Shown piece by piece: positions 1 to 42,547 of a stretch of DNA of 64,000 nucleotides (within the stretch, counting starts at the first letter, position 1; the number at the start of each line of letters is the position of its first letter). This stretch comes from an uncultured Chloroflexia bacterium. Lineage in GTDB: Bacteria; Chloroflexota; Limnocylindria; Limnocylindrales; CSP1-4. The translations under genes were made by a program, and so were the position numbers. The stretch covers positions 32,001 to 96,000 of the forward strand of contig CAVXPZ010000001.1 in NCBI GenBank assembly GCA_963763775.1, given 5' to 3'. Below the pieces are notes generated by a model, which made no database searches, had not been told where the DNA came from, and saw only the letters and a list, made by a program, of their open reading frames with translations.

Positions 1-2071
1 GATCGGCCTGTTCGACATCGAGATCCCGAAGGACAAGGCGGCCCGCCTGACGGCCGCGGACGACTCCGTCCTCGCCATCGACAAGCAGTTCCAGCGCGGC
101 CTCATCACCGAGGACGAGCGGTACGAGCAGGTCGTCGGCGTCTGGCAGGAGACCACCGCCAGGATGTCGGACGAGATGATGAAGTCGCTGGACCCGACGG
201 GCCCGGTGACGATGATGACCGCCTCGGGCGCCCGCGGGAACAAGGGCAACATCGGCCAGCTGGGCGCGATGCGCGGCCTGATGGCCGACCCGTCCGGCCG
301 GATCATCGACGTGCCCGTGCGGAGCAACTTCCGCGAGGGCATGACGGTCCTCGAGTACTTCATCTCGACCCACGGCGCCCGCAAGGGCCTCGCCGACACC
401 GCGCTGCGCACCGCGGACTCCGGGTACCTGACCCGGCGCCTCGTGGACGTGGCCCAGGACGTCATCACCCGCGAGGACGACTGCGGCACCGAGGAGGGGA
501 GCTGGATCATCCGGAGCGAGTCGAGCGAGGAGACGGGCGCCTTCCAGCGTCGTCTCGTCGGCCGCCTCGTGGCCGCGTCCCTCCCGGACCCCACCGTCAA
601 GACGAAGAAGGGCGACGAGCCCGTCCTGCTCATCGAGCGCAACGAGGCGATCGACGAGGAGCTGGCCGCCCGGATCGACGCCGCCGGCGTCGACGAGGTG
701 CTGGTCCGCTCACCCCTCACCTGCGAGGCCCGCTACGGCGTCTGCCGGGCGTGCTACGGCCGCAACCTCGCCACCGGCGAGATGGTCGGCTCGGGTGAGG
801 CGGTCGGCATCATCGCCGCCCAGTCCATCGGCGAGCCCGGCACGCAGCTGACGATGCGGACGTTCCATACCGGCGGCGTCGCCGGCCTGGACATCACCGC
901 CGGCCTGCCGCGCGTCGAGGAGCTGTTCGAGGCCCGGATCCCCAAGGGCAAGGCCGAGATCAGCCACATCGACGGGATCGTCGAGATCATCCGCGGCGAC
1001 GGGCCGACGAAGGTCAAGGTCATCTCGACCGAGGTCTACGACACGTCCCTGGGCATCCCGCCCAAGTCGGAGATGCTCGCGGCGCCCGGCGACCTGGTCG
1101 AGCTCGGCCAGGTCCTGGCCCGGGTCGAGGCCGACGGGGCGACGACCGACGTCGCGTCTCCGGTCAAGGGGTTCCTCGTCAAGGAGAAGGACGGGCTCGT
1201 CGTTCGCGCCGAGGACGTCGTCGAGCGCGAGTACCTCATCCCGCACAACGCCAAGATCCTCGTCGACAACGGCCAGGAGATCCGGGCGGGCGACGCCATC
1301 ACCGATGGCCCGATCAACCCGCAGGAGTACCTCGACACCCGGGGCAAGGATGCCGTCCAGCGGTACCTCGTCAAGGAGGTCCAGAAGGTCTACCGGAGCC
1401 AGGGCGTCACGATCAACGACAAGCACATCGAGATCATCGTCCGGCAGATGCTCCGCAAGGTCCGCATCGATCAGCCGGGTGACATCGACATGCTGCCGAC
1501 GGAACTCGTCGACCGCCTCGAGTTCGAAGAGGACAACAACCGTGTCCTGTCGGAGGGTGGCGAGCCGGCGACGGCCCAGACCGTCCTGCTCGGCGTGACC
1601 AAGGCCTCCCTCAATACCTCGAGCTTCCTCGCCGCGGCCTCCTTCCAGGAGACGACCCGGGTGCTCACCGAGGCCGCCATCAACGGCGCCAAGGACCACC
1701 TGATCGGGCTCAAGGAGAACGTCATCATCGGCAAGCTCATCCCCGCTGGGACGGGCGCGCCGGCGAACGTGGCCGCACGCAAGGAGCGCGAGCGACGGGC
1801 TGCCCTCGAGGCGCTCGCCGGCGAGGCCCTTGACGACCTCGGCAGCGAGTACAACCCGTTCCTCGAGGGCGGCGAAGGCCGCGCCCCGGACGACGACGCC
1901 ACCGATCTCGCGCTCGCCGCGACGATCGCGGGCGGCTCGGACGAGGACGACCTCGCCAACCCGTTCCTCGCCGCCGACGACTCGGACGAGGCCGCGGTCT
2001 CCGACGAGGCGCTCGCCGTCTCGTTCGCGGCCGGTGCCGATGCCGGAGCCGAGGCCGTCGAGAAGGACTGA
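1..2071 (+). CDS. rpoC: DNA-directed RNA polymerase subunit beta' (5'-truncated by window)
   Basis: Bridge helix [27 protein letters not shown], trigger loop [26 protein letters not shown]; frame is open from base 2. Confidence 0.99.
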
Positions 2072-25907: not shown

Positions 25908-26852
25908 ATGACGGATCTCCTCGGATCGATCCTCGACCAGGTCAGCGCGACCACGGTGATCGACATCGGGATCACCGCGCTCCTGATCTACTGGCTGTTC
26001 AGCCTCATCCGCGGGACTCGCGCGGTCCGGCTCGTGATCGGCGTCAGCGTCCTCATCCTCGTCTACGCACTGGCCGTGGCGTTCAACCTCGTCCTGCTCA
26101 CCCGGATCCTCCAGGGTGGCGCGGTCGTCGGCCTGTTCGCGCTCGTCGTCGTCTTCCAGCCGGAGCTGCGCCGGGCCCTCGAGCGCATCGGTCGGGTGGG
26201 CTCGTTCGCCTGGCTGATCTCCCCATCGGAGGCCCGCGCCTCCAGCCACGTCGCGGCCGAGGTCGCGAAGGCCGCTGCAGGGCTGTCGGCTGACGGTCAC
26301 GGCGCCCTGATGGTGATCGAGCGCGAGACCGGGCTCGAAGAGGTCGCTGAGACGGGCGTGATGATCCACGGCGACCTGTCGGCGGACCTCCTGCGGACCA
26401 TCTTCTCGCCGAGGACCGCGCTCCACGACGGGGCCGTGATCGTCCGCGGCGACGCGATCCTCGCGGCCGGCGCCGTCCTGCCGCTCGCCGAGACCAGCAT
26501 CCACTCCGAGCGGTTCGGGACGCGCCATCGCGCCGCGCTCGGGATCGCCGAGCAGACCGACGCGCTGGTCGTCGTGGTGTCCGAGGAGAACGGGCAGGTC
26601 AGCCTCGTCGAGCGGAGCCGGATCGTCCGGAACTTGAACGAGCCCCAGCTGGCGGCCGCACTGCGCACGCTCCTCGACCCGTCGACCGGGCGCCGGGGGA
26701 GCCTCGCGTGGCCATCCGGCGGGACCGGCGGTCGGGCCCCGAGGGTGGGTGACCTGGGCCGATTCGTCGGGCGGCCGCCGGCCGCACCGCCGCGGGCCGC
26801 GTCCGATGATCCGGACCAGCCGACCGCCGCGGCCGCTCAGGCGCCGCGGTGA
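25908..26852 (+). CDS. cdaA: Membrane-anchored diadenylate cyclase CdaA/DacA
   Basis: Three N-terminal TM segments, VVFQPELRRAL, LHDGA and GTRHRAA catalytic motifs. Confidence 0.95.
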   Translation: MTDLLGSILDQVSATTVIDIGITALLIYWLFSLIRGTRAVRLVIGVSVLILVYALAVAFNLVLLTRILQGGAVVGLFALVVVFQPELRRALERIGRVGSFAWLISPSEARASSHVAAEVAKAAAGLSADGHGALMVIERETGLEEVAETGVMIHGDLSADLLRTIFSPRTALHDGAVIVRGDAILAAGAVLPLAETSIHSERFGTRHRAALGIAEQTDALVVVVSEENGQVSLVERSRIVRNLNEPQLAAALRTLLDPSTGRRGSLAWPSGGTGGRAPRVGDLGRFVGRPPAAPPRAASDDPDQPTAAAAQAPR

Positions 26853-28112
26853 CACGACTCCTCGGCGTCGTCGTCCACAATTGGCCTCTCAAGCTCGCGG
26901 CGATCGGGCTCGCGACCCTCCTGTACGCGGGTCTCGTCTTGTCCCAGGGCAGCCAGACCTTCACGGGCGTCATCCCGGTCAAGGTGGACAACCAGCCCAA
27001 GGACACGATCGTGCTCAAGACGATCGACCCGGTCACCGAAGTGCGCTACTTCTCGCCGTCCGGGGCGGTCCCGATCACCTCGACGTTCACCGCGACCGTC
27101 GACGTCAGCAACGTCGTGCCGGGGTCGGGACCGGTGTCCCTGCCCGTCGTGGTCACCTCCGTGGACAACCGGATCCAGGTCATCGGCTCGACGCCGGACA
27201 AGGTCACGGTCCAGCTCGACGCCCTGGTGACCCGGAACGACGTCCCCGTGCTCGTCGACTACGGCACGCCGCCGGAGGGATTCGAGGTCGGGCACCGTCG
27301 AGGTCACGCCGCCGACCGTGTCGGTCTCCGGTCCCGCGACGGTCGTCGACCAGATCGTCGGGGTCCAGGGCAGCGTCCAGATCCAGGCGTCGGGCATCAG
27401 CGTCGACCAGGACGTCGCCCTCACCCCGATCGACAAGCTCGGCAACGCCGTGAGTCCGGTCAACGTCCAGCCTCGCACCGCCCGGGTGAAGATCCCCGTC
27501 TTCGAGAACCGCCAGTCTCGGACCCTGCCCGTGCGCCCCGTGATCACGGGGACGCCGGCCGCCGGCTTCGAGGTGGCGTCGGTCACCGTGCTGCCGACCG
27601 CCGTGACCGTCGAGGGCGGCGCCGAGCCGCTCTCCCAGCTCGCGGAGGCCGACACCGAGCCGGTGTCCGTCACGGGCGCCTCGAGCGATATCAAGACCAG
27701 CGTGGGTCTCGCGCTGCCCAGCGGGATCGTGCCGCTCGGCGATCCGCAGGTCACGGTGTCGGTGACCCTCCGGCCCGTCACCTCCACCCGGACCTTCGAG
27801 GCCGGGGTCACGCTGACCGGCACCAGGGAGGGGCTCGCCTACGACGTCCAGATCGACCGCGTCCTCGTGACGGTCGGCGGGTCCGTGGCGGACCTCGACC
27901 GGCTCGAGGGGGCCAACCTGGTCGCCGACCTCGACGTCAGCGCCCTCGAGCCCGGGACCTCGAACGTCCCGGTCACGCTGGACCTGCCCGCCGGGCTCAC
28001 GCTCGTCTCGGCGAGCCCGCCGACCGTGCCCGTGACCGTCGTCGCCCTGCCGGGTGCGTCCGCGTCGCCGGCCGGGATCGTCGTGCCGTCCTCGTCCCCG
28101 GGCGGCGGTTGA
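26849..28112 (+). CDS. cdaR: CdaR/YbbR-domain regulator (apparent +1 frameshift at ~27290)
   Basis: HNWPLKLAAIGLATLL anchor, beta-rich repeats (P..VTVSGP, VTVEG); sits between cdaA and glmM. Confidence 0.85.
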
Positions 28113-31958: not shown

Positions 31959-33054
31959 GCGCGGCCCGGTCGGGTTCGGCCGGCGGTCCACCGACGACCC
32001 GGTCGCCGCTGACGCCGCGGCCACGGCCCCCGTCCCGGATGGCGCCGTGAAGCTCGACGACGACGCGGTCGGGGCGTTACTGCCGGAGCGGCCGGCGCGC
32101 GGGCACAAGGGCTCGTTCGGCAAGCTCCTCGTGATCGCCGGATCGCTCGATTACGCAGGGGCGGCGCTCCTCGTGTGCCGTGCGGCGGGGCGTGCCGGGG
32201 CGGGCCTCGTGACGCTCGCGGTACCGGAGTCCCTGCAGCCGCTGTTCGCCGCGAAGGTGGTCGAGGCGACGACGATGGGACTCCCCGAGGACGACGTCGA
32301 GGAGATCGACCCGGAGCCGGCGCTCGCCCGGGTCCTGGACCACGAGCACGATGCGATCGTCGTGGGGCCCGGCCTGCGACCCGGTCTGGCGACCGCCGAG
32401 CTCGTCCGGCTCCTGCTGGCCACCGAGGGCACCGATCCCGCCCCGATCGTGCTCGACGCCGAGGCGCTCCGCTCGCTGGCGACCCTCGAGGACTGGTGGG
32501 TCGCGGCCAGCCGGTCCGCGGTGCTCACGCCGCACGCGGGCGAGTTCGCGCGCCTCCGTGCCGGGAGCGGGCTCGATCCGATCGCGGACGGCGATCTCGT
32601 GGACGACGACGCGGCGCGCGTCGCTGCCGCGCGTGACGCCGCCGCGCGATGGGGCCAGGTGGTCGTGCTCAAGGGGGCGGCCACGGTCATCGCCTCCCCC
32701 GACGGGGAGGTCGCGATCTCGCCGTTCGAGAACCCGGCCCTCGCGAGCGGCGGCACCGGCGACGTGCTGGCCGGCGCGATCGGCGCGCTCCTCGCGCAGG
32801 GCCTGGCACCGTATGCCGCCGCCCGACTCGGCGTGTACCTGCACGGCCTGTCCGGCGAGGCCGTGCGCGAACGGCTCGGTGATGCCGGTCTCCTCGCCTC
32901 GGACCTGCCCGACGGCCTGGCGGTGGCGCGGAAGCGGCTCGCGGCCGCCGCCGAACGGCGCCGCGCGCGCGGCCGGCTCGGTTTCGGGGCGCGGCCGGAT
33001 CCGGCGGACGCGACGGACGTCGCGCGCGAGGCGGCGGCGCCCGACCCGGCGTGA
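31951..33054 (+). CDS. nnrD: ADP-dependent NAD(P)H-hydrate dehydratase (no fused epimerase domain)
   Basis: HKGSFGKLLVIAGS, VGPGL, VLDAEAL, LTPHAGEF, LASGGTGDVLAG. Confidence 0.92.
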   Translation: MPERGPVGFGRRSTDDPVAADAAATAPVPDGAVKLDDDAVGALLPERPARGHKGSFGKLLVIAGSLDYAGAALLVCRAAGRAGAGLVTLAVPESLQPLFAAKVVEATTMGLPEDDVEEIDPEPALARVLDHEHDAIVVGPGLRPGLATAELVRLLLATEGTDPAPIVLDAEALRSLATLEDWWVAASRSAVLTPHAGEFARLRAGSGLDPIADGDLVDDDAARVAAARDAAARWGQVVVLKGAATVIASPDGEVAISPFENPALASGGTGDVLAGAIGALLAQGLAPYAAARLGVYLHGLSGEAVRERLGDAGLLASDLPDGLAVARKRLAAAAERRRARGRLGFGARPDPADATDVAREAAAPDPA

Positions 33055-34280
33055 GGGAGCCCATCGAGCACCGGCTCGCCGCCGCCGGCCTCCCGCCGAT
33101 CCCGAGGACCGCGTGGCTCGAGATCGACCTGGCCGCGCTCGCGGCCAACCTGGACGTGCTGCGCCGGGCGACGGGTCGACCGTTGCCGATCCGGCCGGTG
33201 GTGAAGGCCGACGCCTACGGCCATGGCGCGGTCCCGGTGGCGCGCACGCTCGTCGCCGCGGGGGTCGACGGCCTCTGCGTCGCGACGCTCGATGAAGCCC
33301 TGGCCCTGCGCGCGGCGGGCATCGAGGCGCCGATCCTGGTCATGTACCCGGTCCCCCCCGCCTGGGCTGCCGAGGTCGCCCGGTCCGCGATCACGATCTC
33401 GGCGGGTGATCCGGGTCTGCTCGAGGCGATGCTCGCGGCCCACGCGACCGACCGGACGGGGCTCCCGCTCCGGGTCGAGCTGGAAGTCGAGACCGGGCTT
33501 GGCCGTGGCGGCTTCGACGTCGAAGGCGCGGTCGAGGCCGCCCGCGTGGTCCGCGCGGCCCCGGATGCCGAGATCGTGGGCATGTGGACCCACCTCCAGG
33601 CCCCTGAGGACCCCGAGCGGACGGCGACGCAGCTCGCGCGGTTCGACGCGGCCGCGGCGGCGCTGCGCCTGGCTTGGATCGACGTGCCCGACCGGCACGC
33701 GACCGCGAGCGGCGGGCTCGTCTCGGACGGGATCGCCGCGTACGACGGCGTGCGACCCGGGCTCGCGATCTACGGCCTCCTGCCGGATGAGCTCGATGCG
33801 GCGCAGCGGGCCACCCCGGTCGCCCGGGCGCTGCGCCCGGTCATGTCGCTCCATGCCCGGCCCGTCCGCGTGGCGGACCTGCCGGAGGGGTGGGGGATCA
33901 GCTATGGGCCCACGTTCGTGACCGCTCGGCCGAGCCGGATCGCCACGCTGCCCCTCGGGTATGGCGACGGCTGGCCTCGGGCCCTCTCGAACCGGGCGGA
34001 GGCCCTGGTCCGCGGCCAGCGCGTCCCGATCGTCGGCAACGTCGCGATGGACGCGATCATGGCGGATGTCACCGACATCCCGGGTCCGGCGGTGACCCCG
34101 GCCGACGAGTTCACGCTCATCGGGGCCCAGGACCGCGAGCGGATCACCGTCGCCGACTTGGCGCAGACGCGCACCACGAACTCCTGGGAAGTCGTCACGT
34201 CGATGGCTCGGCGTCTGCCTCGGGTGTACGATGCCGCGTCCGGACCGGTCGGTCTGCGCACGCTCACCGAGCGGAGTTGA
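33051..34280 (+). CDS. alr: Alanine racemase
   Basis: PLP lysine motif VVKADAYGHG, VRPGLAIYG, ISYG, GYGDG, VGNVAMD. Confidence 0.93.
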   Translation: MREPIEHRLAAAGLPPIPRTAWLEIDLAALAANLDVLRRATGRPLPIRPVVKADAYGHGAVPVARTLVAAGVDGLCVATLDEALALRAAGIEAPILVMYPVPPAWAAEVARSAITISAGDPGLLEAMLAAHATDRTGLPLRVELEVETGLGRGGFDVEGAVEAARVVRAAPDAEIVGMWTHLQAPEDPERTATQLARFDAAAAALRLAWIDVPDRHATASGGLVSDGIAAYDGVRPGLAIYGLLPDELDAAQRATPVARALRPVMSLHARPVRVADLPEGWGISYGPTFVTARPSRIATLPLGYGDGWPRALSNRAEALVRGQRVPIVGNVAMDAIMADVTDIPGPAVTPADEFTLIGAQDRERITVADLAQTRTTNSWEVVTSMARRLPRVYDAASGPVGLRTLTERS

Positions 34281-34286
34281 ACACCT

Positions 34287-34814
34287 GTGGCTCGCATCGA
34301 ACTGTGGAACGGCGACATCTGCGACCTCGAGGTCGACGCGATCGTCAACGCGGCGAATCTCTCGCTGTGGATGTCCACCGGCGTCGGCGGCGCGATCAAG
34401 CGCGCCGGGGGTGACGTCATCGAGTTCGAGGCCGTGCGTCAGGCACCCGTGCCCCTTGGCGGGGCGATCGTCACGAGCGGCGGCACGCTGCCCGTCCGCG
34501 TCGTGATCCACGCCGTCTCGCTGGACCGCGAGCGTCGCACGAGCGGCGCGACCATCGAAGCGGCGGTCCGCGCGGCGATGGCCCGGGCACGCGAGCTCGG
34601 CGTCACGAGCATCGCGTTCCCGGCCCTCGGGACCGGGGTCGGCGGCTTTCCGATCGAGGAGGGCGCGCGCATCACCGTCGAGACGGTGCGCGAGGAACTG
34701 CCCTCGTGTCCTACCATCCTCGTCGTGACCTTCGCCCTGCGCGGCCAGGCCGCCTATCAGGCGTTCGCGGCCGCCCTCACCGCCTCCCATCCCGCGGCCG
34801 GGGCCGTCGCATGA
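34287..34814 (+). CDS. Macro domain protein (MacroD/YmdB-like ADP-ribose binding)
   Basis: GDICDLEVDAIVNAAN, VIHAV, SIAFPALGTGVGGFP. Confidence 0.9.
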   Translation: MARIELWNGDICDLEVDAIVNAANLSLWMSTGVGGAIKRAGGDVIEFEAVRQAPVPLGGAIVTSGGTLPVRVVIHAVSLDRERRTSGATIEAAVRAAMARARELGVTSIAFPALGTGVGGFPIEEGARITVETVREELPSCPTILVVTFALRGQAAYQAFAAALTASHPAAGAVA

Positions 34815-35101
34815 CGATGCCCGTCGAGCCGACCGAGGAGCAGCGGGATGAGCTGGTCGAGGAGGTCGCTCGCGAGATCCACCTGCGGGGCCTGACCGGC
34901 CCAGCCGTCCACTTCCTCGAGGCCAGCCGGCCGTACCGGCCGCTCGGCGCCAACGCCATGTTGTTCTTCGACCCGGTGCTGCACGGGCTGTTCGGCGGCG
35001 AATCGGCGTCCGCGAGCGAGATCCTCGCCGACGACGCCGGGATCGAGCAGCTGATCGAGCGGCTGGAAGAACTCGACGACGAGGCGACCTGGGACGCGTG
35101 A
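34811..35101 (+). CDS. Small acidic hypothetical protein (96 aa)
   Basis: ATGA overlap with macro gene; GC3-biased codons; helical, ...FLEASRP...FFDP...LIERLEE. Confidence 0.75.
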   Translation: MTMPVEPTEEQRDELVEEVAREIHLRGLTGPAVHFLEASRPYRPLGANAMLFFDPVLHGLFGGESASASEILADDAGIEQLIERLEELDDEATWDA

Positions 35102-35135
35102 CCCGCACCCGGTCATGGCCGGGTAGCATGACCTC

Positions 35136-36752
35136 GTGACCGGCGACCCGCGCGCATTCCTCGCCCTCGACCGCGGAGCGGCCACTTCCGGCGCCGCCTT
35201 GATCGGCCGGGTCGGCGGCATGTGGCGGCTGCTCGGCTCCGTCGCCCTGCCTGCGGCCTCCGACCCCGATGCCGCCGTGGGCCTGCTCCTGCGCCGCGTG
35301 ATCGCCGCCGACCCTCGCCTCGCCCGACGCCTCGGCGTGGACACGGACGACGGTGGGCTGCTCCCGACGGTCACGGTGACCTCGGCTCGGCCACGACGGC
35401 TGGTCGTCGTCGCGGCCTCGGAGCGGGCGCTCGCCCCACTCGTCGCGTCGGCGGCGCGGAGCGGCTGGCGGACGATCGGCGTCAGCGCCGAGACGACCGA
35501 CCCGCTCGCGATGACGCGGCTCCTCCTCGACGAGGCCACCGACGGGATCCTGGCCGGTGCCGGTGACCCCCCCGGGGCCGACGAGCGCGGGCCGCTCGCC
35601 GAGCTCACGGCGCTCGTGGGCGCGGCGGCGCGTCGGCGGCCCGAACGGCTGGTGGTCCTCGCCGGCGCCATGGCCGAGTCGACCGCGGCCTTCGGCGACC
35701 TGAACACCCGTGACGGCGAGACGCTCCTGGCGCCGGCCGCGCACCCGGGTGTCGAGGGGGCACCGCTGCGCGACCTGCTCAGTGCCCTCGCGCTCCCGGC
35801 CGACGACGCCCGCCGCGCGCTCGGGCCGGCGCTGCTCACCCTCGCGACCGTCCTGGAGCGCCGGGTCGAACTCGTGGAGATCGGCTTCAACGGGGGCGTG
35901 CGGGCGACCGCGACCCCCGGCGGGCCGTCCGAGGGCCCCAGCGCCGACGTGGCGATCGTCCCGACCGCCCGGCTCGCGCCGTCGGACCCCGACGACGCCA
36001 CCGTCGATCGAGTACTGGCCTGGACGACGGTGCCTTCGGACCGCCATCGGCTCCGCGACCGGCTGCGCGAGCTGCGGATCGCCCCGTGGTCGGACCTGAC
36101 CGGGGACGGTGCCGCCCTCAGGATGGCCGCCGCGCGGGCCGCCCTCGCCCGGCTCGCCGAGGCGACACCCGAATTCGATGCCGCGCCCGCCCCCGACATG
36201 ATCGTCGCGGCGGGTGGCGTCTGGGCGATCGCCCCGGCGCCGGTCGTCGCCCTCGCGCTCGCGGACGTGCTGCGACGGCCAGGGGCGTCGAGCTACGCGC
36301 TCGACCACGCCCGGCTCCTCGGGCCGCTGGGGTCGATCCCGGACGTCGAGGAGCGGCGGGCCGTGATCACGGACCTCGCCGACGACCTGCTGGCGCCGCT
36401 CGGCAGCGTCGTGACGCCCTCGGGCCTCCGGTCCGGACGAAGTGCGGGCACGCTCACGGTCCACGGTCGCACCGGCCCGGCGCGTCGTGGAGGGCCGATC
36501 GACCTGGTCCCCGGCGGCATCGAGGTCGTGGACCTCCCGCCCGGTTCGAGCGCTACCGCGGAGTTCCAGTTCCGCGACACCGTGCGGCTCGGCGGCCGCG
36601 GGCGGCACTTCGCCGTCGACGTGGTGGGCGGGCTGGCCGGTCTCGTGGTCGACCTGCGCGACGTCCCGATGCGGCTCCCCGAACGGGCCGACCTCCGCCG
36701 CGAGTTGCTCGACGCGTGGCAGACCACGGTCGCGAGCGGGATCCGCCGGTGA
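35136..36752 (+). CDS. GlmL/MutL (glutamate mutase L)-like actin-fold protein, degenerate
   Basis: N-terminal AFLALDRGAATSGAALIGRVGGMWRLLG resembles ASKHA phosphate-1 strand; DMIVAAGGV; C-terminal GGLAGLVVDLRDVPMRLP...W; family recognised from recall, not searched. Confidence 0.65.
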   Translation: MTGDPRAFLALDRGAATSGAALIGRVGGMWRLLGSVALPAASDPDAAVGLLLRRVIAADPRLARRLGVDTDDGGLLPTVTVTSARPRRLVVVAASERALAPLVASAARSGWRTIGVSAETTDPLAMTRLLLDEATDGILAGAGDPPGADERGPLAELTALVGAAARRRPERLVVLAGAMAESTAAFGDLNTRDGETLLAPAAHPGVEGAPLRDLLSALALPADDARRALGPALLTLATVLERRVELVEIGFNGGVRATATPGGPSEGPSADVAIVPTARLAPSDPDDATVDRVLAWTTVPSDRHRLRDRLRELRIAPWSDLTGDGAALRMAAARAALARLAEATPEFDAAPAPDMIVAAGGVWAIAPAPVVALALADVLRRPGASSYALDHARLLGPLGSIPDVEERRAVITDLADDLLAPLGSVVTPSGLRSGRSAGTLTVHGRTGPARRGGPIDLVPGGIEVVDLPPGSSATAEFQFRDTVRLGGRGRHFAVDVVGGLAGLVVDLRDVPMRLPERADLRRELLDAWQTTVASGIRR

Positions 36753-37792
36753 ACGGCGAGCGCCGGAGCGCCGGGGAGCGGGATCCGGACATCGGCCTGG
36801 TCCCGTCCCGACCGCTCATCGAGTCGCCGATCGACGCGGTGTTCGCCCTGTCGCCGGGCGACCGGGCGCTCGTCGAGGCCGGCGGTTCCGTGGTCGTGGG
36901 TGCCCCGATCGCCGAACGGCTTCGGGACCCGCGGCTGGAGGACAAGTCGGTGTCCGAGCCGGTCGAGCCGCGGCCCGGCGACCGCTGGCACGCCCTGGGC
37001 GGTCGGGTCGTCGCGCCGCCGTCGCCCGGGGCGCCACGCGGCTCACCCGGCGGCGAGTACCTCTTCCCGTGGAAGGGCCGCTGGCGCGTCGCCACCGGCG
37101 ACATCATGGATCCGGTCGAGACGCCGGTCGCGGGCATCGTCCGCGAGGTGCGCCCGGGGACGTCCATCACCATCCGGGCCGCCGGACGCGGCATCCGCGG
37201 GATCGTGGCCCTCGGCGGGCCGACACGGGGACGGCTCAGCCTCGCCTCGGGACCCGACGGCGGCCTGCGCCCGGGCGCCCTCGATGTCGGGATGGCCGGT
37301 TCCATCCTCATCGTGGATGCGCGCGTCGATGCCGAGACGCTCACCCGTGCCCGCGCCATGGGCGTCCGGGGGATCGTGGTCGCCGGCCTCGCGAGCAAGG
37401 AGCGGCGCGACTTCCTGGCCTCGGAGGCCCGGCAGCGCGCCGCGCTCCATCGACTCCCGCCCTATGCCGTCCTGGTCATGGAGGGGGCGACCCGTCGGCC
37501 GATGGCCGGCCAGATCATGGCGCTCTTCGCGTCCCTCGCCGGCCGCGAGGCGGCGATCGTCTCCGACCCGCCGATGCTGGTGTTCGACGCCCCGGACCTG
37601 CGGGTCCCGACACCGAGCCCGGACCTGGTGCGGATCCGCGCCGGCGCGCTGATCGGGCAGGAGGCCCGCTGGGTCGGCGCCGCCGGCCGTCGGCGGTTCA
37701 GCAGCGGCGTGGACCTCGAGGCGGGGCACGTCCGGCTCAGCGACGGCGGCACGGTCGCCATCCCGCTCGGGGACCTGGAGCGGTTCGTCTGA
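36749..37792 (+). CDS. Hypothetical protein with barrel-sandwich-hybrid-like hairpins and C-terminal KOW/SH3-like domain
   Basis: GTGA overlap with upstream gene; LVEAGGSVVVGAPIAE, TPVAGIVREV, ARAMGVRGIVVAG, VRLSDGGTVAIPLGDLE. Confidence 0.7.
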   Translation: MNGERRSAGERDPDIGLVPSRPLIESPIDAVFALSPGDRALVEAGGSVVVGAPIAERLRDPRLEDKSVSEPVEPRPGDRWHALGGRVVAPPSPGAPRGSPGGEYLFPWKGRWRVATGDIMDPVETPVAGIVREVRPGTSITIRAAGRGIRGIVALGGPTRGRLSLASGPDGGLRPGALDVGMAGSILIVDARVDAETLTRARAMGVRGIVVAGLASKERRDFLASEARQRAALHRLPPYAVLVMEGATRRPMAGQIMALFASLAGREAAIVSDPPMLVFDAPDLRVPTPSPDLVRIRAGALIGQEARWVGAAGRRRFSSGVDLEAGHVRLSDGGTVAIPLGDLERFV

Positions 37793-37833
37793 CCGTCGGG
37801 CATCACGCTCGTCCTTCCGCTACCCTCGGGCGG

Positions 37834-38307
37834 ATGGCCGCGATCGCCGCACGCACCCGCCGGGTCACGGCACCCGACCCCGACGCCACTTCGGCCCTCG
37901 GCCGCTCGCTCGCGAGCGCCGCGCACCCCGGTGACCTCGTGTGCCTGTGGGGCGACCTCGGGGCGGGCAAGACGCACCTCGCCAAGGCGTTCGGGGCCGG
38001 TCTCGGGGTGACCGACACGATCACGTCCCCGAGTTTCGTGCTCATGGCCGAGTACGACGGCCGTCTGCCGCTCTTCCACGTCGACCTCTACCGGCTCGCC
38101 GACGCGAGCGAGGCCATCGCGGGCGGCCTCCTCGACGATCGCTGGTCGGGCGGGGTCACCCTCATCGAGTGGCCGGACCGGATGGGCGCGGCGTTGCCGC
38201 CGGAGCGGCTCGACGTCGTGATCGACGGGTCCGGCGACGATCCCCGGGAGATCCGCCTCACCGCGCACGGGACACGGCATGCCGGGTACCTGGACGTCCT
38301 CGGATGA
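37834..38307 (+). CDS. tsaE: t6A biosynthesis ATPase TsaE
   Basis: GDLGAGKT, TSPSFVL, HVDLYRL, LIEWPD. Confidence 0.95.
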   Translation: MAAIAARTRRVTAPDPDATSALGRSLASAAHPGDLVCLWGDLGAGKTHLAKAFGAGLGVTDTITSPSFVLMAEYDGRLPLFHVDLYRLADASEAIAGGLLDDRWSGGVTLIEWPDRMGAALPPERLDVVIDGSGDDPREIRLTAHGTRHAGYLDVLG

Positions 38308-41535: not shown

Positions 41536-42547
41536 ATGACGAGTGCCGACGACCCGACGCGGCGACTGACGCCGGTCGTCCGGCTCGCACCGGCGAAGCT
41601 CAACCTGTCCCTCGCCGTGGTCGGGCGCCGGCACGACGGCTTCCACGAGCTCCACTCGGTCTTCGTGCCGCTCGGGCTCGCGGACCGGCTCAGCCTGGCC
41701 CCGGCGGGGGCACGCACCGACACGCTGCATGTCCGAGGGTTCGACGCGGGACCGACTGGCCGACAACGTCGTCCTTCGGGCGCTCGTGGCCACGCGCGCG
41801 GCCGTCGGCGGTGGGTGGCCCGGAGGCCCGGGCCCGGCCCCGGCCCTCGCCGCCCGGCTCGAGAAGCGGATCCCGGTCGCCGCGGGCCTCGCGGGCGGTT
41901 CCTCCGATGCCGCCGCGACGATCGACGGCGCGCTCGAAGCCTGGGGCGCCGCCCTGGACCCCGAGACCGTGTCGCGGGTCGCGGCCGGCATCGGGTCGGA
42001 CGTGCCGTTCTTCGCGGCTGGCGGCCCGGCCCTCATCGAGGGGCGTGGCGAGCGCGTGGCCCCGCTGGGCGGGCTGCGCGGCCACCCGGCGGTCCTCCTG
42101 GTGACCCCCGATGTCGCGGTCTCGACCCGTGACGTGTTCGCGGCCTTTGACGCCCTGCGCCCCGGCGGCGGGGACGGCTCGGTCCGGATGTCGTCGGCCC
42201 ACCTGGCCGAGGAGCTCCGGTCGGGCCTCGGGGCATCCGACCTGGTCGCCCGTGCCGGCGTGCTCGCGATGGCCAACGACCTGCTCCCGGCGGCCGCCGC
42301 CGTACTCCCGTCGCTCGTGCCGTTCCGGCGAGCGGTCAGCCGCCGCCTGCGCCGGCCCGTCGGCCTGTCGGGCTCCGGCCCGACGCTCTGGGCGCTCTAT
42401 GCTTCGGAGGCGGAGGCCGCGGCCGCCGCGGAAGAGGTCCGCGCCGGGATCGCCGACGGGACGCTCGTCGCGCCAGGGGGACCGGCGCCGTTCATCACCG
42501 CCACGACCATCGTCACCCATCGCATCGAAGGGGAGCCAACGCCATGA
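41536..42547 (+). CDS. ispE: 4-diphosphocytidyl-2C-methyl-D-erythritol kinase (apparent +1 frameshift at ~41755)
   Basis: APAKLNLSLAV...DGFHEL in the first frame; KRIPVAAGLAGGSSDAA, GSDVPF, LSGSGPT in the next frame. Confidence 0.9.

Follow-up and report, generated by a model that had tools for sequence, protein, structure and literature searches.

Four genes between alr and tsaE

The window examined here, a 64,000-nucleotide (nt) stretch of contig CAVXPZ010000001.1 from an uncultured Chloroflexota bacterium of the order Limnocylindrales, holds four consecutive plus-strand open reading frames (ORFs) between alr (33051-34280) and tsaE (37834-38307), coding for a macrodomain protein, a small acidic protein, a protein related to GlmL/MutL and its partner protein (Table 1). 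All four genes lie where the original prediction had placed them, and the two coupled pairs it proposed were confirmed by overlaps in the sequence (ATGA at 34811-34814 and GTGA at 36749-36752). Our comparisons suggest that three of the genes belong to a real, conserved system that is undescribed in the literature searched, while the macrodomain gene probably does not belong to it. The literature search, which left most subscription papers outside its scope, returned nothing on the GlmL-like/partner system or its operon. Gene maps were drawn for 40 loci and then for 72 further loci, in which we distinguish the family of the window, a genus of the same order with small genomes (1.0-1.4 Mb, around 1.1 Mb) and a sister family in the same class. 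Some genomes enter the locus counts twice and close relatives are included, which makes these counts non-independent; phylum-wide counts come from one draw of 251 Chloroflexota genomes.

Table 1. Positions of the features discussed (window coordinates unless a locus, L, or the window's own genome, G000, is named; residues are those of the protein given)
Feature	Position	Strand	Remarks
Macrodomain gene, 175 amino acids (aa)	34287..34814	+	ORF read, PF01661
Small acidic protein gene, 96 aa	34811..35101	+	First gene of the probable ancestral seven-gene operon; ATGA-coupled to macrodomain gene
TAGCAT, -10-type box	35124..35129	+	Putative leaderless promoter of the GlmL-like/partner pair; motif kept across family loci
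Long-form GlmL/MutL-like protein gene, 538 aa	35136..36752	+	Start codon GTG
Partner protein gene, 347 aa	36749..37792	+	GTGA-coupled to GlmL-like gene
TACCCT, -10-type box before tsaE	37821..37826	+	Right border; belongs to tsa genes
GlmL-like protein, ASKHA core			Phosphate-1 DxG at residues 12-14
GlmL-like protein, flavodoxin-like (Rossmann-type) insert	residues 85-222		
GlmL-like protein, altered phosphate-2 loop	residues 245-254		
GlmL-like protein, adenosine GG	residues 360-361		
GlmL-like protein, extra C-terminal beta domain	residues about 420-534		
Partner, barrel-sandwich hybrid	residues 28-145		
Partner, swivel beta/beta/alpha domain	residues 146-281		
Partner, KOW/SH3-like C-terminus	residues about 290-346		
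GlmL-like/partner fusion	L069:9527-11197 and L183-L194		Genus with ~1.1-Mb genomes
Degenerate lysine-5,6-aminomutase-alpha-like gene	G000:C2:41503-42888; L163-L170	- (G000)	

The GlmL-like/partner system was found in 23 of 24 genomes of the same genus, with a few matches split across frames. Median ratios of nonsynonymous to synonymous substitution (dN/dS) across 9-10 close loci were 0.20 for the macrodomain gene, 0.14 for the small gene, 0.19 for the GlmL-like gene and 0.18 for the partner gene, next to 0.26, 0.22 and 0.10 for alr, tsaE and glmS in the same comparison; purifying selection acts on all four genes at a level comparable to alr and tsaE. A decaying relic without current function would account for the long branch of the family (1.12), the loss of its Pfam match and its altered motifs, yet it has to contend with dN/dS values of 0.18-0.19 for the pair, near-constant presence in the genus, a conserved promoter and matches in 16 of 16 small genomes. 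The selection data largely refute this reading, which we regard as extremely improbable.

The last two genes had been predicted to form their own transcription unit on the strength of two hexamers, both of which are present: TAGCAT ends 6 nt before the GTG at 35136, and TACCCT ends 7 nt before the ATG of tsaE. Of 72 family loci, 69 have a TAnnnT box 6-7 nt upstream of the GlmL-like start codon; the box reads TAGCAT in 63 and keeps a 6-nt spacer in 67. This exceeds chance, given that in the window's own genome the same pattern precedes 272 of 3031 called gene starts (9%) and 30 of 30899 internal ATG/GTG codons. Of 69 family loci, 29 also have the box ahead of tsaE, and it was found before none of the macrodomain (0/67), small (0/72) or partner (0/70) genes. 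A leaderless-promoter motif of this kind is described for Deinococcus in passages of PMC12340547, and the box upstream of the GlmL-like gene fits such a promoter; its conservation backs a separate promoter for the pair. In the family, the box fills the gap where the sister family carries four membrane genes.

The proposed four-gene module, by contrast, was not supported at its macrodomain end. The macrodomain matches PF01661 directly (E 1.5e-27) and scores no more than 120 bits against NCBIfam equivalog cut-offs of at least 200, remaining below all NCBIfam cut-offs. It shares the domain with MacroD-type ADP-ribose hydrolases, whose motifs we take to be a GGGV-D loop and a G-x-aromatic-G loop, but differs in these loops and falls short of the equivalog cut-off; the conserved family motifs read WMSTGV and GTGVGG. 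A second macrodomain gene of the same genome (G000:C1:1153968-1154474, minus strand) has canonical-looking motifs, GGGVD and GTFG. The window's macrodomain gene and its counterparts stand next to the set in 67 of 70 family loci (the three without one all come from one genus), 3/6 sister-family loci, 0/13 small-genome loci and 0/29 loci outside Limnocylindria. This macrodomain gene is confined to that class, a class-specific neighbor outside the conserved core, and is likely a co-transcribed bystander. A module of all four genes tied to ADP-ribose signaling, as had been suggested, could draw on the coupling to the small gene, on the frequent adjacency in the family and in half of the sister-family loci, and on motifs that are atypical yet conserved and would suit a binder. 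Given the absences listed above and a putative promoter that divides the macrodomain gene from the pair, we judge it very unlikely; three genes belong together, and the macrodomain gene probably stands apart from them.

The seven-gene operon in related lineages

In five of the six sister-family loci, the interval between alr (or the macrodomain gene) and tsaE holds seven genes in the order small, DUF6754, memB, memC, memD, GlmL-like, partner. The same set occurs elsewhere in genomes of other classes, the alr-tsaE position being specific to this one. DUF6754, memB, memC and memD have 2, 5-6, 2 and 5 predicted membrane helices, respectively. These four middle genes are gone from all 70 family loci with visible upstream DNA, and a six-frame search did not find them in the window's own genome, which is 87% complete. 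Alignment searches with memD and DUF6754 returned nothing in 21 family, 4 small-genome and 2 sister-family genomes and one weak match across 42 partner-positive genomes of 13 other families, while within the family memB was negative (0/3) and memC gave one weak partial match in 3; all seven memD/DUF6754 controls were part of the training alignments and an unseen control was recovered for memB and memC only, which counts against relying on the loss.

Homologs of the small gene head the operon in other Chloroflexota. In other classes the gene tracks the membrane module (13/15 membrane-type versus 0/14 membrane-less loci), yet it is retained in 70/70 loci of the module-less family at 79% median identity. 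Judging from these gene orders, the small, GlmL-like and partner genes are very likely a remnant of the seven-gene operon. In the phylum sample the partner was found in 140 genomes and DUF6754 in 67; 62 have both, 78 have the partner without DUF6754 and only 5 the reverse, an asymmetry that marks the pair as the core and the membrane module as optional.

Several loci carry further features around the operon. In 5-6 loci (L085:7749-8303, L086, L088, L092, L093) it is followed by a gene for a Thr-rich protein whose C-terminus is of the LPNTG type. In MemC a long, acidic N-terminal region can carry up to 35 PxWL repeats (L095:11895-16109, L097:4372-7659, L101:8986-11184), and short acidic PxWL ORFs were seen by eye before the GlmL-like gene in the membrane-less loci L197 and L199, making PxWL a possible docking motif.

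The GlmL-like protein, its partner and their fusion

The 538-aa protein itself has no Pfam or NCBIfam match, but syntenic orthologs 30% identical to it pass the PF13941 cut-off (E 6e-28 to 2e-21) and its Atlas neighbors carry MutL. These relatives and the fold make it homologous to PF13941 by transitivity rather than a direct member, so that of the two predicted family assignments Macro was recovered directly and MutL/GlmL through orthologs only. The model (predicted local distance difference test, pLDDT, 94.5) matches FtsA, DnaK, PilM and DdrA and, in agreement with the GlmL-like ASKHA fold originally proposed, predicts a distant long-form GlmL/MutL relative with two lobes. A quick tree groups the family with the sister family (support 100) on the long branch noted above; under its arbitrary root the membrane-less state takes several changes, at least two of them forced. 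With midpoint rooting, three mutase-linked GlmL/Or-4 proteins (L171-L173) sit among the long forms.

In the nucleotide site, all 62 full-start family sequences keep G14 of phosphate-1 and 60 of them keep D12, G361 is present in 69 of 69, and D390 is retained; nucleotide binding may thus persist. At least 67 of the 69 family sequences have E, V, M or I in place of the phosphate-2 Asp, which 31 of 36 other sequences keep, and the residue after the phosphate-2 glycine is mostly H, F or Y in place of the G, A or S found elsewhere (D-x-G-G/A/S). On balance, we lean towards weak or no ATP hydrolysis in the window's family.

The top Foldseek matches are N-methylhydantoinase (hydantoinase A) and the ATPase subunits of acetone and acetophenone carboxylases (Apc/Acx), in which ASKHA core and insert align over about 320 residues (322 for acetone carboxylase beta, insert included) at a root-mean-square deviation of 7-8 and low identity. 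Together with the likeness of the partner's swivel to phosphocarrier domains, they would suit an ATP-dependent enzyme akin to hydantoinase or acetone carboxylase, or the energizing subunit of a membrane complex for nutrient uptake. This we consider improbable, as no catalytic HyuB-type or other cognate catalytic subunit lies near the window genes, membrane subunits were found neither in the family nor, by Pfam, in 78 of 140 partner-positive genomes, the phosphate loops decay in both family and fusion, and the partner alignment lacks a conserved His, the phosphorylatable residue expected of the swivel in Enzyme I and PPDK carriers. FtsA and PilM are 12-15% identical to the GlmL-like protein and lack counterparts of its flavodoxin-like insert and of the partner; a separate ftsA is present in 5 of 5 genomes tested.

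The partner bears out the hybrid-type and KOW domains that had been read from it, the former as a hybrid barrel, with a swivel domain between them in addition. Through its KOW, hybrid-barrel and RraA-like domains it could bind RNA, the ribosome or RNA polymerase, the ASKHA protein acting as a switch. These domains are small and promiscuous, however, and whole-protein scores are low (template-modeling score 0.16 to NusG); the tsa neighborhood is class-specific, the ancestral operon consists mostly of membrane genes, and the partner was not found in 111 of the 251 genomes, all of which renders such a factor unlikely. In contrast to the diol dehydratase reactivase DdrA (PDB 2d0o), the swivel here is encoded separately or as a C-terminal fusion; the 50 fold matches listed for the partner do not include DdrA, and no dehydratase neighbor appears in the loci read.

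In the small-genome genus the partner profile, which contains one row from that genus, matches 16 of 16 genomes. In 13 of 13 loci one uninterrupted ORF, 556-639 codons long, matches the GlmL-like profile at ~205-510 and also the partner profile at 141-345, the latter rebuilt without sequences of the genus (hhalign 97%). The fused chain has lost the flavodoxin-like insert and the hybrid barrel and keeps the second ASKHA lobe, the C-terminal domain, the swivel and KOW; by eye, phosphate-1 DxG is visible in just 2 of 12. Its dN/dS of 0.14-0.21 (15 pairs) indicates purifying selection. The ORF overlaps alr and tsaE in L069 and L185, and several fusion loci lack glmS at the site. The fusion supports a physical pair with a putatively non-catalytic core: the two proteins likely bind each other, probably through the parts that the fusion has kept. 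A lone fusion in the window's own family is a one-base artefact or a recent slip.

Glutamate mutase is the enzyme that MutL/GlmL, named as its chaperone in passages of PMC4682846, reactivates, and the long relatives carry the database label 'MutL/glutamate mutase L', implying a B12 role at odds with their distribution. GlmL/MutL (PF13941, TIGR01319, NF040745) and Or-4 (NF040744) have in common with the 538-aa protein the ASKHA core and the same Rossmann-type insert. The true GlmL/Or-4 copies are short and adjacent to a mutase (L171-L173). The window protein exceeds them by ~90 aa and has a C-terminal beta domain that 3/3 of these copies lack; also unlike them, it has a fixed partner gene, an altered phosphate-2 loop and neither mutase neighbor nor co-inheritance; four orthologs score 26-88 bits where the TIGR01319, NF040745 and NF040744 cut-offs are 204-600, and it gives no match itself.

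No mutase gene was called in the 64-kb window, in line with the original prediction, whose wider claim of mutase independence stands in part. GlmE occurs in 4 of 251 genomes and in 0 of 140 partner-positive ones, intact KamD/OraE in 7, five of them partner-positive, and 123 of the 140 have neither even with the degenerate copy counted. One genome that is 96% complete in a single contig (G099) has the adjacent pair, and none of the three mutase families searched was found in it; methylmalonyl-CoA mutase (PF01642) was not found in two of the four partner-positive genomes tested, G099 included, and is present in 8 of 14 controls without PF13941 over cut-off. The pair is thus not co-inherited with glutamate mutase, lysine/ornithine aminomutase or methylmalonyl-CoA mutase. 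What tells against independence is that B12 genes lie elsewhere in the window's genome: a split methylmalonyl-CoA mutase, whose B12 subunit is present in 5/5 small-genome genomes, and a degenerate KamD-like gene, which 12 of 12 family genomes carry at E values of 1e-15 to 1e-33, well under the equivalog cut-off. The pair might then reactivate or chaperone one of these two. We find this distinctly improbable: a putative MeaB-like gene, labeled by its motifs, adjoins the B12 subunit, the KamE dimer domain was not found in the window's genome nor a KamD-like gene in 5 small-genome or 14 sister-family genomes, and the fusion does without the insert. The degenerate KamD-like gene is a second orphan B12-related gene of the family.

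Possible function of the pair

The GlmL-like protein and its partner would form a cytoplasmic two-subunit complex, a binding scaffold or nucleotide-sensitive adaptor and not a strong ATPase. Where the full operon is present, this complex would attach to the membrane module, by analogy with the actin-fold proteins FtsA and PilM, which dock on membrane assemblies. Since the pair is widespread without that module, the latter would be an optional localizer or input rather than what the pair powers. Our favored reading, still a tentative one, is that the three genes are an operon remnant whose two-subunit scaffold or adaptor, likely no strong ATPase, probably serves a cell-envelope process. A basic scaffold job is likely for the pair; the choice of the envelope over another target is the weakest step, and here we are more doubtful. 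It leans on the ancestral membrane genes, the fold kinship with FtsA and PilM, the LPxTG-like follower and the near-absence of the partner from murD-negative genomes (1/27 versus 139/224 murD-positive genomes, 7 of the 27 negatives being deduced by complement). Passages of PMC10608941 describe Dehalococcoidia that lost the dcw genes. The murD-negative genomes are largely related small genomes, apparently for the most part those Dehalococcoidia.

A number of observations weigh against this reading. The murD-negative genomes are related to one another and so do not provide independent support, and the link is weak in the other direction, 85 of 224 murD-positive genomes being without the partner. 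No envelope gene is a constant neighbor outside this class in the loci read, and the Pfam anchor match of the LPxTG-like follower reaches only E 0.04. In two families (f13 and f30) the partner is unlinked, lying far from the GlmL-like operon (L200, L201, L202) while present in 16/16 and 7/7 genomes. Phosphate-1 DxG, the adenosine glycines and D390 are intact in the family, and membrane-less lineages elsewhere have canonical nucleotide motifs. The dN/dS of the fusion is above those of alr, tsaD, rimI and acpS (0.04-0.08) and of most neighbors there (0.04-0.16), and the fusion is weaker evidence for a physical pair in that neighbors fuse anyway in this genus: ksgA and ispE are apparently joined after tsaD (647 aa in L069), with ORFs of ~590-650 aa there in several more loci.

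A wider version of the scaffold reading would make the pair a near-essential actin-fold scaffold of most peptidoglycan-making Chloroflexota, module-free in many lineages, a pseudo-ATPase in Limnocylindria and, as one 556-aa chain in streamlined freshwater cells, reduced to a minimal core, with GlmL a shortened offshoot of the older protein; taken whole, this is rather unlikely. At one chromosomal site, the lineages range from the complete operon through the three-gene remnant to a fused single chain and so amount to a natural deletion experiment, in which the membrane module, macrodomain, small protein, flavodoxin-like insert and hybrid barrel are dispensable and the second ASKHA lobe, C-terminal domain, swivel and KOW are kept. 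More than half of the sampled Chloroflexota genomes carry the system, and the lineage series reduces it to a target of one or two soluble proteins.

Apart from the pair, a ybbR-like gene, ispE and ftsA look frameshift-split (window 26849-28112 and 41536-42547; G000:C1:218163-219276), probably through assembly errors.

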